A DNA stretch of 64,000 nucleotides, taken from Octopus sinensis (lineage: Eukaryota). A program made the position numbers and the translations under genes. The number at the start of each line of letters is the position of its first letter. Position 1 is the first letter of the stretch. The notes below the pieces were generated by a model. The model was not told where the DNA came from and did no database searches. It saw nothing but the letters and a program-made list of their open reading frames with translations. The stretch spans positions 43,772,001 through 43,836,000 of the forward strand of contig NC_043009.1 in assembly GCF_006345805.1 (NCBI RefSeq), written 5' to 3'. Below are positions 9,884 to 63,141 of this stretch, piece after piece.

Positions 9884-10170
9884 GGGCTTATAGCCTTGTG
9901 ATTATTGCGATACACTCACAATCGCGAAATCACGGTTTCGATCCTTGGACAGGGCAGTGCTTTGTATTCTTTGTATTCTTCAGCAAAACACATCATCTTA
10001 TATTTACTCTGCGATCACTTTGGCACCTGACGTGTGGCACACCGTGCACCTGTTCAGGTAACGTCGATCATGTGGAGGGAGTGTGCTAATATACAGCACA
10101 TAGATTTGATCAATATAAACAAATCATCTGCGAATGTTGTTCTCCGAAAAATTGCAGAACCGTCTTTCTC
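9884..10170 (+). mobile_element. Old tRNA-headed SINE-like element
   Basis: TAGCCTTGTGATTA (A-box-like) and CACGGTTTCGATCCTTGGACAGGGC, which resembles the family C head; the body differs. Confidence 0.5.
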
Positions 10171-13181: not shown

Positions 13182-14222
13182 ATGTCTTTTATCCTTTCGG
13201 AGTCGATAAATTAAAGTACGCCGAACAGAAAGCATAACGACATTTCTTCTGGCTTTATGCTCTCAGTTTAAACTCCGCAGATGGTGATTTTTGCCTTTCA
13301 TCCCTTCGAAGTCGATAAAATAAGTACCAGTTGAACACTGGGGTCAATGACACCGACTGGTCTTGTCCCCGAACCCCACCCGCCCCACCCCCAAAATTTC
13401 AAACCTTGTGCCTATGAAAGAATTATTATTGTTATTGCTATTTTGTTTGTTTACTGTTGTTGCTATTTTGTTTGTTGTTGTTGTTGTTGTTGTTGTTCTT
13501 ACTGTAAGGGTGAATAGCCAGAATAGTAAGAGCGTTGAACAAGACGTTTAGCAGTTTGGCTGCTGTTCTTTATGTTCTGAGTTCAAATCCTGCCAAAATC
13601 AACTTTTTCTTTTCATATCCCTCCCAGGTTAATATAATCTTTTCTACTCTAGGCACAAGGCCTGAAATTTGGTGAGTGGGGGAGGGAAGGATTAAGTCGA
13701 TTACATCGACCCCAAAAGGATGAAAAGCAAAGTCGACCTCGGCAGAATTTGAACTCAGACGTAGCGACGGGCGATATACCGCTAAGCATTCTGTCAAGCG
13801 TTCTAACGATTCTTATTTCTTTATTACCCACAGAGAGGACAAACAAGGACAGACAAACGGATTAAGTCTATTACATTGATCCCAGTGCTTAACTGGTACT
13901 TAATTTATCGACCCCGAAAGGATGAAAGGCAAAGTCGACCTCGGCGGAATTTGAACTCAGAACGTAGCGGCAGACGAAATACCTATTTCTATTTTTTTAC
14001 TACCCAAAAGGGGCTAAACACAGAGAGGACAAACAAGGACAGACAAACGGATTAAGTCGATTACATTGATCCCAGTGCGTAACTGGTACTTAATTTATCG
14101 ACCCCGAAAGGACGAAAAGCAAAGTCGGCCTCGGCGGAATTTGAACTCAGAACGTAACGGCAGACGAAATGGCGCTAAGCATTTCGCCCGGCGTGCTAAC
14201 GTTTCTGCCAGCTCGCTGCCTT
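13180..14222 (-). mobile_element. SINE family B cluster: plus-strand remnants (13180-13630) and a minus-strand head-to-tail array (13650-14222)
   Basis: Repeated ~180-bp unit GGACAAACAAGGACAGACAAACGGATTAAGTCG...GGAATTTGAACTCAGAACGTA ending in a complete head at 14222. Confidence 0.9.
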
Positions 14223-17698: not shown

Positions 17699-18375
17699 CG
17701 ATGATGATGAGAGGGACGAAACAAACAGACATAAAGTGTTGGGGTTTACATACAATGAAATGATAAAGTAAGGAAATAATAAAAGGAAAAATAAAATAAT
17801 CCTTTCTACTATAGGCACAAGGCATGAAATTTGGAGGGAGGGTCCGAGTCGCTTACACCGACCCCAGTGTTGCAACTGGTACTTATTTCATGGAACCCGA
17901 AAGGATGAAAGACAAAGTCGACCTCGGTAGAATTTGAACTCAATACGTAAAGACGGGTGAAATACCCATTTCTTCACTACCCACAAGGGGCTAAACACAG
18001 AGGGGACAAACAAGGACAGACAAACGGATTAAGTCGATTATATCGACCCCAGTGCGTAACTGGTACTTAATTTATCGACCCCGAAAGGATGAAAGGCAAA
18101 GTCGACCTCGGCGGAATTTGAACTCACAACGTAACGGCAGGCGAAATACCTATTTCGTATTTCTTTACTACCCACAAGGGGATAAACACAGAGAGGACAA
18201 ACAAACGGATTAAGTCGATTATATCGACCCCCAGTGCGTAACTGGTACTTATTTCATCAAACCCGAAAGGATGAAAGGCAAACTCGACTTTGGTGGAATT
18301 TGAACTCAGGACGTAAAGACGGGTGAAATACCGCAAAGCATTTTGCCGACGTGCCGACGAGTCTGCCAGCCCGCC
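17440..18375 (-). mobile_element. SINE family B: single copy (17440-17660) and tandem array of three units (17800-18375)
   Basis: Core ATCGACCCCGAAAGGATGAAAGGCAAAGTCGACC is repeated; junctions read GAAATACC(C/T)ATTTC. Confidence 0.9.
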
Positions 18376-25700: not shown

Positions 25701-26263
25701 CCTCCTCCTTATCCTATCCTCCTCCTCCTGCTCCCCTCCCCCTTTAGTATTTCGATTGTTGTACGTTATCTAGACTATACAATTACCAAAAGTAATTGTC
25801 TTCAAGTATCGCACAACCGTAAAGGGAGCCAGCCCCTTCCTTATCTCCCTACTCCCCCCTCGCCCCCACTCTCTCTCTCTCTCTCTCTCTCCTTTTCTCT
25901 GATTCTTCCCGACCACCACACCCGAGGTGGAGAATACCTCAACTTCACCACCCCGACCACGACCACCACCACCAATGCTATCAGTTGTTTTTATCTATGT
26001 TGCCCCCCACCCTCACTGTTTTTATTGCTCCAGTGGTTGTCGTTGTTTCTCATTGTTTCCATTGATGCTGCCGATGTAAATGGTGCTTCTGTTGTTTTAG
26101 GTCCCTCATTTTTTTAGTATCTGCTTTTTTGGGGGTTGTTTTTAAGGGGATACAATCAGTAAAACGAAGAACGACAGGCTAAATTTTCGAAGATATTGTA
26201 TTATATACCATTTTTTTACGTTCTGGGTTCAAATCACCCTGAAGTCGATATTACATCTCATCA

Positions 26264-26500
26264 AGGCGGCGAGCTGACAGAAACGTTAGCACACCGGGCG
26301 AAATGCGTAGCCGTATTTCGTCTGCCGTTACGTTCTGAGTTCAAATTCCGCCGAGGTCGACTTTGCCTTTCATCATTTCGGGGTCGATTAAACAAGTACC
26401 AGTTATGCACTGGGGTCGATATAATCGACTTATTCCGTTTGCCTGTCCTTGTTTGTCCCCTCTGTGTTTAGCCCCTTGTGGGTAGTAAGGAAATAGATAT
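26264..26500 (+). mobile_element. SINE family B, full-length copy
   Basis: GGCGGCGAGCTGACAGAAACGTTAGC head, GAGTTCAAATTCC B-box-like motif, GCCTTTCATCATTTCGGGGTCGAT..AAGTACCAG core, tail GCCCCTTGTGGGTAGTAAGGAAATAG. Confidence 0.9.
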
Positions 26501-28059: not shown

Positions 28060-28653
28060 ACGATGAATTGTATACAGCTGTAGACATTGTCATTGCAGCT
28101 TCACTACTGCTGTTGTTGATATTTGAGCAATTGTTGCCATCCTTATTAATACCGCTGTTGTTTAGAGGTGGGGGTTGTTGGAGGTACCCACCCTGAAGAG
28201 AAAACATTATCCCCAATCGTTTCAAGGTCTTCTAGATTCGAAAGAGACACCGAGGGAGTGAGAGAGAGAGAGAGAGACAAAGAGAGACAAAGAGAGAGAG
28301 TGAGAAAGAGAGAAATAGAGACAGACAAACAGAACTGGTTGAAATTGACATAGTATATGTTTATGTTCAGTTTTAATTCTAGCAGGTTTGATGCCCGATT
28401 GTGTCAGGCGAGAAGCAAAGATTCTGCAGATACGCAATTCTTTTTGAAGGATTAGTGAAAAGCATATAATTATTCATGAGGTGCATGCCAAACAGCATGA
28501 ATCCAGACAATAATATATCTGTACTTTCTCTCTGTACATTCTAGCAGTTTCGAACGTCCATAACAAATCATATTTTGTTTTTCGTCATCAGAGAATACTT
28601 CTCTTTCAACGATATGTGTTCATAAACACACGTAGTTCACTGGTATAAGGGGA

Positions 28654-28704
28654 CTTCAAAACACCGCGATGTTTCAACCTTTTTGTGTATCTTCTCAGTC
28701 GAAA
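28654..28704 (-). ncRNA. Degenerate minimal type-I hammerhead ribozyme
   Basis: TTTCGA-CTGAGAA-GATA-CACAAAAA-GGTT-GAAA-CATC-GC-GGTG-TT-TTGAAG. Confidence 0.6.
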
Positions 28705-28918
28705 ACTACCCCGCTGGACGGATGAATAAAAGAAAAAAAAAGCATGAGCTCTTCTTTATATCAGCAATAATAATTCCTGAGATGTTCTCAGAACAGCTAG
28801 AATCGAAATAGTAATGCATCTATTCATTTTTAATACGTTCTGGCAGATACGAAAATGGATATGCCATCGCTGTTACTTTTCGTCATCAGAGATCACCTCC
28901 TCCCTTGAAAGGATGCGT

Positions 28919-28969
28919 TTTCGGCCGAGGAGACCCAGAACGAGGTCGAAACATCGCGGTGTCTCGAAG
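28919..28969 (+). ncRNA. Minimal type-I hammerhead ribozyme, one substitution from the canonical core
   Basis: TTTCGG-CCGAGGA-GACC-CAGAACGA-GGTC-GAAA-CATC-GC-GGTG-TC-TCGAAG. All three helices pair, the GUC triplet ends at 28963, and the core has CCGA for CUGA. Confidence 0.78.
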
Positions 28970-29496
28970 TCCGATTACACAGGTGAATCGCGTGTGTTGT
29001 GAACATACATTGCCAAAAGGGAAGAGATGTTCTCCGATGACGAATAACAATTGCGATCAGACATTCATATTCTAATCTGCCAGAACGTATTAAGAATGAA
29101 CAGATACGCTATTGATTGATAAAAAAAAAACTTTTGCCTACAATGTGTATGAAAAAGAATCTACACAGATGGGCTTAAATAGGGTTGATAAAGAAACAGC
29201 TACTTGAAAAAAACGGAGACTGGTGTAGTGACAATAAAAATCGCATTAAGAATCATGGCACACCAATGAACATAGTGTGGCTGTAGTGTGGTAATTGCAT
29301 ATGTTAACGGTTTAATTATTGGTTAACCAGAGATCTGACACGTGCCATTTACTGGTTTTAACTGATTAAATATAAGTGTAATATGCTAACTAAGGATTGG
29401 TTGTGCAAATGATGTTCAAGAGCATTTTTTGATGGCGTCATTCTATCAATGTAGCGATTGTACAAGGCCTTTCTAATATAAGACCTGATTTAAAAA

Positions 29497-29710
29497 GGTG
29501 GCGAGCTGGCAAAATTGTCAGCACGCCAGGATAAATGCTTAGCGGCATTTCGTCCGTCTTAACGTTCTGAGTTCCACTTTGCCTGTCTTCCTTTCGGGAT
29601 CGATAAAATAAGTACCAGTGGAACACTGGGGTCGATGTAATCGACTTAGCCACCCCCAGCCCCACCCCACGAAATAGCTGGCTCTGTGTCAAAATCTGAA
29701 ACCAATATAA
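29497..29710 (+). mobile_element. SINE family B with apparent long target-site duplication
   Basis: AATATAAGACCTGATTT occurs at about 29475-29491 and again at 29704-29720. Confidence 0.85.
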
Positions 29711-30894: not shown

Positions 30895-31115
30895 AGAGCA
30901 GTGAGTGGTAGAATCGTTAATATGCCGGGAAAAATGCTTCGTGGTATTTCATCCGTCTATGTTCTGAGTTCAAATTCCGCCGAGGTCGACTCAGCTTTTT
31001 ATTCTTTCGGGTATCGATGAAATAAGTACAAGTTGGGTACTGGGGTCGATGAATTGACTTAACTCATCTTTCACCCCCGAACTTGCTGGCGGCGTTGTGC
31101 CAAAATTTGAAAACA
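30895..31115 (+). mobile_element. SINE family B copy with the TTGTGCCAAAATTTGAAA tail
   Basis: Head, B-box-like motif and core are recognisable. Confidence 0.85.
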
Positions 31116-46932: not shown

Positions 46933-47354
46933 TAGTAGTAGTAGTAGTAGTAGTAGTAGCAGCAGTAGCAGCAGCAATAACAGTAACAATATTATCACCA
47001 GCCACGAACCACCACTACTTCTACGTACACGACAGTTTCCTCTGTCACCTCCAACACTACCCCCACCATCATTACCAAACGATGACCTCACTAAGGTCAT
47101 TTGGCCGCCACAATCCAGCAGGAGAGTGTGCCACAAAGAGGTTGCTTGACACAATAGATATAGCAACCAAGTCTCAACTTAAGTTAAATCCTATAATTTA
47201 TGGGGCGCACGTAGAATAGCAAGATTTCGAATCATTAACGTATCTGTTAATCTGTTTGGTAGACATTTGCACACATCAGTAAATAACGTGTTTCCTGTAA
47301 ACAAAAGCTCCTGTTTTTGTGAGATTCATCGGTCCGGCAGTGGGGATTGTTTCT

Positions 47355-47410
47355 GAGCTTCTGATGAGACATACAACGAGGTTGAAACACTGCGCTGTGC
47401 CTTAAATCCG
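47355..47410 (+). ncRNA. Degenerate hammerhead of the same family as 28919-28969
   Basis: CTGATGA-GACA-TACAACGA-GGTT-GAAA-CACTGCGCTGTG-CC: canonical core, but helix I and the cleavage triplet are decayed. Confidence 0.5.
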
Positions 47411-47791: not shown

Positions 47792-47949
47792 GTGCATGCA
47801 TAAACCATCGCTCAATGGGAGGAATCGTTCTCTGACGCCGAAAAACAACAGCGATCCTACCAAAACTTAAATAAAAACAACATCACTAAGCACTTACCCA
47901 CATTAATAAGCACAATAACAATAATAAACAGTAAGATATGAGTAAACGA

Positions 47950-62779: not shown

Positions 62780-63141
62780 TATAACTTACCACACAGCCAC
62801 GCCTAAGCCTATAATTATTGTATAAGTTATGATGATTTTTGCTTATCATACATTATGCCTCAAAGATTTGCTATGCTATAGACATATACCAACACACACA
62901 CACACACACACATTAGCGACAGAGGTAGCATTAATACTGAGAAGTAAAACTTATTTCCACTTAAATGTGGATGTTCTATGAGAACAAACTTTACTGCGGT
63001 AGTTGCCATGAGAGAAACTCTCACTTTGACTTTTTGATGCAAAATGGACGCTACCAGCAGCGTGGAGACCACTAGATCACGAGATTTCGACCTTATTTGG
63101 TCTTATCAATGATGGACACTTGAACTTTAGAGACGGCAACA

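Follow-up and report, generated by a model that had tools for sequence, protein, structure and literature searches.

The window analysed here, a 64-kb stretch of octopus DNA, contains at 28460-29118 a compound insertion that in all likelihood is a decayed copy of a protein-free, 339-nt hammerhead ribozyme repeat, likely mobilized by a borrowed Penelope-type reverse transcriptase (RT) and endonuclease and possibly derived from a predicted circular RNA. Judging by its sequence, the element appears to be a decayed non-LTR retrozyme or, in other terms, a non-autonomous Penelope-like element (PLE). This class is already known, and the useful contribution is a clean insertion footprint that points to the Penelope machinery; the insertion is an old decayed relic, and the locus itself is ordinary decayed repeat DNA.

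The window is repeat-rich, and the assembly from which it comes spans 2.72 Gb. We delimited the insertion by a BLAST comparison of the window with the majority sequence of the family monomer, which moved both boundaries outward from those given in an earlier, sequence-only reading of this DNA (28530-29113). Two minus-strand pieces in partial tandem are joined 5'-to-5' to one plus-strand piece, with both 3' ends facing outward. The features, with monomer positions numbered from the predicted cut, are as follows.

28460-29118, no strand: the whole compound insertion, two minus-strand pieces and one plus-strand piece
28460-28767, minus: 5'-truncated piece, monomer 234-339 followed by 1-199, ending in the tail; 76% identity to the majority sequence (monomer alignment)
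28460-28503, minus: the tail, about 40 nt long and covering monomer 156-199; the insertion has it on the left but not on the right (alignment and end peaks)
28654-28704, minus: hammerhead copy 2, damaged by G8A, a GUU triplet and wobble pairs in helix II (sequence, alignment of copies and family model R1)
28767-28922, minus: 5'-truncated piece, monomer 38-193, with its tail at 28767-28805; 81% identity (inverted arms and monomer alignment)
28920-28922, no strand: 5'-to-5' inversion joint, which intrudes into the 5' strand of helix I; its 3-nt overlap (TTC) is compatible with either arm (sequence against the arm alignments)
28920-29118, plus: 5'-truncated piece, monomer ~297-339 followed by 1-155, without tail; 87% identity over 28927-29118 (monomer alignment)
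28919-28969, plus: type I hammerhead copy 1, with U4C at 28926 and the predicted cut between 28963 and 28964 (sequence and Rfam)
47250-47409, plus: separate insertion of the 339-nt family, monomer 192-338, with a damaged hammerhead at 47354-47409; it resumes at 47806-47856 beyond a SINE-like repeat (R1 model and monomer BLAST)

Two pairs of inverted arms are recognizable, 28625-28706 against 28917-28998 (82 nt, 77% identity) and 28818-28906 against 29017-29105 (89 nt, 79% identity). The second pair bears out the inversion between a third partial copy at 28806-28910 and the sequence at 29011-29113 that had been proposed earlier, but a 39-nt tail, absent from the right-hand arm, carries this copy further left, to 28767. 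With its tailed left end and untailed right end, the insertion is typical of the family. The hammerhead of the separate insertion at 47250-47409, which is split by a tandem SINE-like repeat, scores 41.4 bits on model R1. Weak R1 matches were also detected at 63067-63119 (minus; 19.3 bits, E 0.01) and 9940-9991 (minus; 14.1 bits, E 0.27), neither with a monomer BLAST match. A SINE-like repeat of about 180-190 nt is abundant and at times tandem; in the window it occurs at 26263-26432, 29495-29648, 30958-31050, 13829-14170 and 17847-18332.

The plus-strand copy has the layout of a minimal type I hammerhead, letter for letter as read earlier: helix I UUUCGG/UCGAAG, core CCGAGGA, helix II GACC/GGUC, GAAA, ACAUCGCGGUGU and GUC, with the predicted cut after 28963. 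The CCGA noted in place of CUGA is the U4C substitution at 28926. The suggested check with covariance models of the Infernal type yielded a full-model match to Rfam RF00163 (Hammerhead_1), although at 26.3 bits (E 0.0036 in 6 kb) it lies below the gathering score of 34. Helix II comprises 4 bp in this copy alone, the family majority having 3 bp. The sequence CAUC-GC-GGUG, previously taken as helix III, is indeed a near-palindrome, but its 2-nt loop 3 cannot close, so that the monomer fold consists of 4 bp and a CGCG loop, the alternative being a 12-bp palindromic dimer helix. The sister copy on the minus strand keeps CUGA and, as anticipated, is damaged elsewhere, by G8A, by GUU at the cut and by a helix II weakened by wobble pairs; it scores 63.3 bits on model R1, of whose training set it was a member. 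Thus, neither of the two window copies, with U4C in one and G8A in the other, has an intact core. In neither copy is the hammerhead the fold of lowest energy, and neither folds better than shuffled sequences (z 0.40 and 0.23), which says little in the case of a small, multi-branched ribozyme. Two consecutive complete hammerheads, which a recent preprint takes as the mark of active elements, are absent at 28460-29118, where the copies lie on opposite strands and are both damaged; this concerns the activity of the insertion, not its descent. To judge from its letters, copy 1 has mutated since insertion and likely no longer cleaves.

Genome searches with three probes uncovered a dispersed family. 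The probe 28800-29010 gave 48 matches from the best 40 of 125 candidates, a second probe, from the other half of the monomer, gave 42 from the best 40 of 246, and a third, which covers the 3'-end region, gave 44 from the best 40 of 302; altogether, at least about 112 distinct family loci were retrieved. Each genomic place was counted only once, the exception being L108/L128 in the comparison of PLE protein matches described below. The majority sequence of 29 copies aligned with their flanks closes on itself, with a 128-nt self-overlap at 88%, and this periodicity defines a monomer of 339 nt rather than the unit of about 200 bp estimated initially. The monomer has 44.5% GC and no long ORF in any of the six frames, in agreement with the non-coding nature proposed for the family. 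Head-to-tail units are present, 37 of the 175 mapped fragments being longer than one monomer (the longest is 787 nt), and tandem pairs of hammerheads occur in L022, L047, L049, L062 and L063. Long arrays are rare: 7 of the 175 fragments exceed 1.5 monomers and 2 exceed two monomers.

The family appears to be old. The median Jukes-Cantor (JC) distance to the majority is 0.216 (range 0.13-0.29, 78 fragments), CpG columns are heavily decayed (0.63 conserved), and no young copy of the 339-nt family turned up in any of the genome searches run. This age would coincide with the PLE wave at JC 0.2 reported for Octopus vulgaris (PMC13282606). A subfamily (L130-L155) with 26 exact motif matches differs from the majority by approximately 10% and carries a one-base insertion near position 95, suggesting at least two source lineages. 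No family copies were found in 60 arbitrary 10-kb stretches (599,900 bases), and the absence of matches in approximately 600 kb places the family below about 14,000 insertions (95% bound). About 300 nt from one family copy, in L033:2011-2125, there is a 5S rRNA-like sequence (46.1 bits).

The family majority restores the canonical ribozyme core, as had been predicted for a consensus, with CUGAnGA, GAAA and GUC. Among 64 copies, the majority core is canonical at 12 of 12 positions (C3 in 53 copies, U4 in 51, G5 in 54, A6 in 59, G8 in 55, A9 in 61, G12 in 50, A13 in 61, A14 in 61, A15 in 55, U16 in 58 and C17 in 52), and the core is fully intact in 12 individual copies. The majority helices consist of 6 bp, of 3 bp with a 10-nt loop and, at helix III, of a perfect 12-nt palindrome that folds as 4 bp plus a tetraloop or pairs with a second copy (-22.7 kcal/mol). 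The genome search and consensus proposed earlier delivered a dispersed family without ORFs and with a canonical ribozyme core. In an Rfam scan, none of 16 family loci from the first search reached the cut-off, and the family copy in L033, which came from an Rfam search, scored 37.6 bits. According to PMC4209133 and PMC6765202, metazoan hammerheads whose loop 3 is palindromic act as dimers and have a helix III of 1-2 bp; since that of the family is longer, its dependence on dimers is uncertain.

Core columns outside CpG are more conserved than base-matched columns (0.906 vs 0.838, permutation p 0.0003, 57 loci) in a test that omits loci found by the core pattern, which inflate conservation; this suggests that cleavage mattered in the source lineages. 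The three helices are pairable in 83.9% of 721 cells compared to 22-43% for slid partners, a result that is favored by the derivation of the structure from the same sequences. Absence of helix covariation had been named beforehand in the sequence-only reading as evidence against it, and within the family none was found: the score is 0.194 vs 0.199 for shuffled alignments, with 349 of 500 shuffles reaching it, and for the helix III pairs, p is 0.12-0.79 (84 copies). Old copies decaying neutrally would be expected to show none, and the reading stands. Even for the majority sequence, the hammerhead is not the minimum-energy fold (-6.0 vs -11.9 kcal/mol).

The ends of the copies carry the most telling signal. 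Pooled end mapping covered 175 fragments from the 89 of 110 loci that gave matches (those that gave none include other hammerhead families), with the diverged L031, L108 and L109 left out, as they were from the mapping of the first 70 loci. The 3' ends of 118 of the 175 fragments fall at monomer positions 135-200 and form two peaks about 40 nt apart, with 48 ends at 140-160 and 48 at 186-200; in the first 70 loci (66 with matches, 129 fragments), 87 of 129 3' ends fall in positions 135-200, against only 25 starts. The 5' ends are scattered, that is, 5' truncation is variable. BLAST ends on copies diverged by 20% are uncertain by several bases, and the loci were chosen by similarity to the three probes. 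A third, smaller 3'-end cluster lies at monomer 47-60 (16 of 175); some of these ends are internal deletions towards 90-130, and a minor start site could account for the rest. The polarity of the junctions is strict: pooled, there are 41 5'-to-5' inversions, none 3'-to-3', and 22 direct junctions. The first 70 loci contribute 28 of 28 adjacent inversions in the 5'-to-5' arrangement, and 23 new loci contribute 13 against 0; in the latter, the end positions are biased by the probe but the polarity is not. Where both ends of an inverted pair are at a peak, one is short and the other tailed in 7 of 8 cases (first 70 loci). Over the first 25 nt past the peak ends, A+T content is 73%, and a search of 31 inverted clusters for target-site duplications revealed nothing consistent.

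These ends and inversions match the published PLE footprint. Partial tandems, an inverted 5'-truncated copy and a 30-40 bp tail at one end are described for PLE insertions (PMC8557442); two internal start sites of reverse transcription delimit the tail, a feature that PMC11167929 calls unique to PLEs, and insertion nicks and extends both DNA strands at AT-rich targets (PMC11167929). Together with the canonical majority ribozyme and the lack of ORFs, the Penelope-type ends and 5'-to-5' inversions bear out the suggestion of a Penelope- or retrozyme-type non-coding retroelement family.

The structure at 28460-29118 predates at least some species splits. Contigs assembled from runs of other species read across both ends of the insertion and, in organisms B, D and E, across the inversion joint; therefore, the structure is not an assembly error and was in place before those splits. 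Contigs of organism E differ by about 4-7%; beside the joint, at 28919, they have the G expected of the minus arm. The plus-strand hammerhead of organism E shares U4C and adds C3U at 28925 and two changes in helix III, so this ribozyme is not being conserved.

Two further readings were weighed. The repeat could be a DNA-level one (a satellite, foldback or MITE-like element) with a chance hammerhead-like motif and with inversions caused by recombination or misassembly; the Rfam score below the cut-off and the failure of the local copies to fold better than shuffles are as expected under such an explanation, but it has to contend with the 41 to 0 polarity and the fixed 3' ends, the complete canonical core of the majority and the bridging of the joint in other species, by which it is already largely refuted, and we consider it very unlikely. 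Co-option of this particular copy as a working ribozyme or hairpin RNA would fit its retention in organisms B, D and E and the long hairpin that its arms could form; given U4C in copy 1, shared by organism E with C3U and two helix III changes on top, and G8A in the copy of the other arm, we find it hardly credible.

We searched for the element that might have supplied the enzymes. Intact PLE ORFs, with open frames of about 750-1000 codons, are present in the genome, and we take their linker cysteines to resemble those of the Neptune clade, a label that follows the mention of this linker in PMC8557442 and was assigned without a tree. Two abundant PLE families (L074, L075 and L083-L097; L247-L265) have long frames, with a recurrent length of 781 codons and a maximum of about 1000; on the strength of many near-identical copies, they are possibly recently active. 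The comparison with these potential partners covered 3-kb stretches from a few, mostly young PLE families. No real monomer match was found in 30 GIY-YIG loci, and none in 20 RT loci of the second PLE family, save for one locus that coincides with L133. In L133, an RT fragment lies about 670 nt from a family piece but belongs to a separate, abundant PLE family, and the proximity looks coincidental. The more diverged copies L031 and L108/L128 (67-70%) were considered as partner elements and rejected. An ORF encoding RT and GIY-YIG domains, which the sequence-only reading had advised looking for nearby, was found neither in the monomer, nor in the window, nor beside 112 of 113 family loci: PLE protein matches occur at 1 of 113 family loci (355 kb) compared with 6 of 60 arbitrary 10-kb stretches (600 kb), that is, without enrichment over the background. 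Many matches to residues 1-50 of the L265 frame are equally frequent in arbitrary DNA and represent a common-repeat artefact. The 63 5' flanks and 113 3' flanks of family copies share only common SINE-like or simple repeats, and the loci retrieved with the hammerhead motif yielded no partner element that shares the 339-nt monomer. The mobilizing element may be extinct.

The form of RNA that served as the template is constrained by the same fragments. The predicted cut site is crossed by 94 of the 175 fragments, and starts within 8 nt of the cut number 11 compared to 8.3 expected, with no pile-up; because of this read-through, the absence of a 5'-end pile-up and the 37 fragments longer than a monomer, the template was usually something other than the cut linear monomer. 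The read-through would fit either a circle or an uncut multimer. As a circle, the majority monomer folds at -111 kcal/mol (z -5.2, 0 of 100 shuffles as low, 64% paired), and the linear form folds equally well (-115.6 kcal/mol), so folding does not show circularity. Variants are shared within insertions at 2.15% and between insertions at 1.73% (p 0.08, with no pair dropped as near-identical). Two runs that we guessed to be RNA contain only short family-like pieces, none over the hammerhead, and give no evidence either way; contigs cannot tell a circle from a tandem. Ligated circles are documented for retrozymes of coral, mussel and axolotl (PMC7229834), and for an anole PLE, the one element of its kind assayed in vitro, hammerhead cleavage is dispensable, with uncut RNA as the main template (PMC11167929).

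From the closed monomer, the two 3'-end peaks, the scattered 5' ends, the 5'-to-5' inversions and the read-through, which are the observed elements, we infer the following course of events. A source array would be transcribed and cut by the hammerhead after GUC, probably aided by pairing of the 12-nt palindromic helix III between neighboring units. The monomer would then be ligated into a circle, for which, on the fragment data, the chances seem about even; an uncut multimer used directly would be only somewhat less probable than that, and jumping of the enzyme between cut monomers an improbable one. A GIY-YIG enzyme would nick both strands of AT-rich DNA, each nick priming cDNA from an internal start about 150 or 190 nt past the cut, and two unfinished cDNAs would join 5'-to-5' at a short overlap, which would leave an inverted insertion tailed on one side only. 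In its fullest form, to which we give slightly less than even credence, the proposal is that the family preserves, in fossil form, the traces of a 339-nt circular RNA made by the ribozyme, on which a Penelope-type RT started at two internal sites and ran round the circle from both nicked strands. If this is true, the insertion ends are direct genomic evidence for the movement of an animal retrozyme and name two RNA sites recognized by the enzyme.

At the step of template formation, the ribozyme might have had no part at all, uncut multimeric transcripts being the template for the Penelope machinery without any circle. This is conceivable although, on balance, doubtful: hammerhead mutants had no effect on insertion of the anole element in vitro (PMC11167929), long arrays are rare (7 of 175 fragments above 1.5 monomers) and helix covariation is absent, but the core is conserved above background, which suggests that cleavage mattered, and yet 94 of 175 fragments cross the cut, a combination that ligated circles of the kind documented in coral, mussel and axolotl reconcile (PMC7229834). 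A different question is whether the repeat is an independent non-autonomous unit, as we favor, or whether its pieces are truncated pseudo-LTRs (pLTRs) of an extinct autonomous PLE. Length, hammerhead and tail would all suit a pLTR (PMC8557442), an old ORF could escape detection, and among 57 retrozyme families of Xenopus, 24 match known elements, 21 of 22 being PLEs (bioRxiv 10.64898/2026.07.22.740005). However, either reading direction stays inside the 339-nt cycle, the 63 5' and 113 3' flanks share only SINE-like or simple repeats, and PLE protein matches at 1 of 113 family loci do not exceed the background; we regard the pLTR origin as unlikely.

With the independent unit as the preferred reading, the 339-nt family would act as a non-autonomous PLE while also having, by sequence, the defining properties of a metazoan non-LTR retrozyme. 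Like the retrozymes described in PMC7229834 and by Li, Clavereau and Pollet (bioRxiv 10.64898/2026.07.22.740005), it is a non-coding unit within 150-450 nt, with GC under 45%, one type I hammerhead per unit, no ORF, a strongly self-paired RNA, and both tandem and solo copies. In contrast to them, it consists mostly of solo or partial copies and inverted pairs, not arrays, is decayed by about 20% and is known from DNA alone. It resembles endonuclease-bearing (EN+) PLEs of the Penelope/Poseidon and Neptune groups (PMC8557442, PMC11167929, PMC4209133) in several ways: copies are truncated at the 5' end, arranged in partial tandems and joined to an inverted 5'-truncated copy, one end bears a tail of about 40 nt, the targets are AT-rich, and a type I hammerhead whose helix III is palindromic precedes the start sites. 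It differs in having neither an RT/GIY-YIG ORF nor an identified parent. The predicted start sites, at about 150 and 190 nt past the cut, also differ from one site in the anole element, which lies about 85-92 nt past its cut (PMC11167929). Non-autonomous PLEs of Chlamys, such as MRC1 (PMC8557442), are likewise non-coding, with pLTRs and head-to-tail insertions; according to the same source, their 3' ends as a rule resemble those of an autonomous family, and most Chlamys elements lack a canonical hammerhead, whereas the 339-nt family has a hammerhead and no known partner. The type I topology and core are those of Rfam RF00163, from which the family departs in the 3-bp helix II with a 10-nt loop and the 12-nt palindrome at helix III.

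Mobilization of retrozymes by PLEs was proposed by Cervera and de la Pena in 2020 (PMC7229834) and again in bioRxiv 10.64898/2026.07.22.740005, where animal retrozymes are argued to be non-autonomous PLE derivatives. In these sources, the mode of retrozyme insertion is still a hypothesis, with PLEs named as a strong candidate in PMC7229834 and the argument of the preprint drawn from pLTR homology, with the mechanism left to work out. The link to PLEs made here comes from insertion ends, as opposed to the pLTR sequence homology and co-occurrence used in bioRxiv 10.64898/2026.07.22.740005. A protein-free hammerhead repeat with a Penelope-specific tail and inversion footprint supports the mobilization hypothesis at the level of single insertions, and the footprint predicts that cDNA synthesis starts at about 150 and 190 nt past the cut. 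In the literature searched (main texts, with few subscription journals), we found no description of an octopus retrozyme, of the 339-nt family or of a PLE tail footprint on a retrozyme.

Tests would be better made on younger families, the 339-nt family being old and without a known partner. Another hammerhead repeat family, seemingly of younger age (L034, L035, L036, L098, L100-L125), accounts for 17 of the 30 loci of the hammerhead-motif retrieval; its core and helix II are similar, helices I and III and the flanks are different, its copies frequently terminate in (TA)n, and a search within 1.5 kb found no PLE ORF. L032 carries a type I hammerhead of a different kind at 1501-1547 (41.9 bits), about 900 nt after a frame at L032:1-605 that presumably resembles the end of a non-LTR retrotransposon protein. 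In one of the two abundant PLE families, a hammerhead-like motif was recognized by eye at L075:2362-2399 (plus strand), approximately 570 nt after the ORF, with U3-A8 replacing C3-G8; a hammerhead variant of the U3-A8 type has been described in Schistosoma (PMC4209133).
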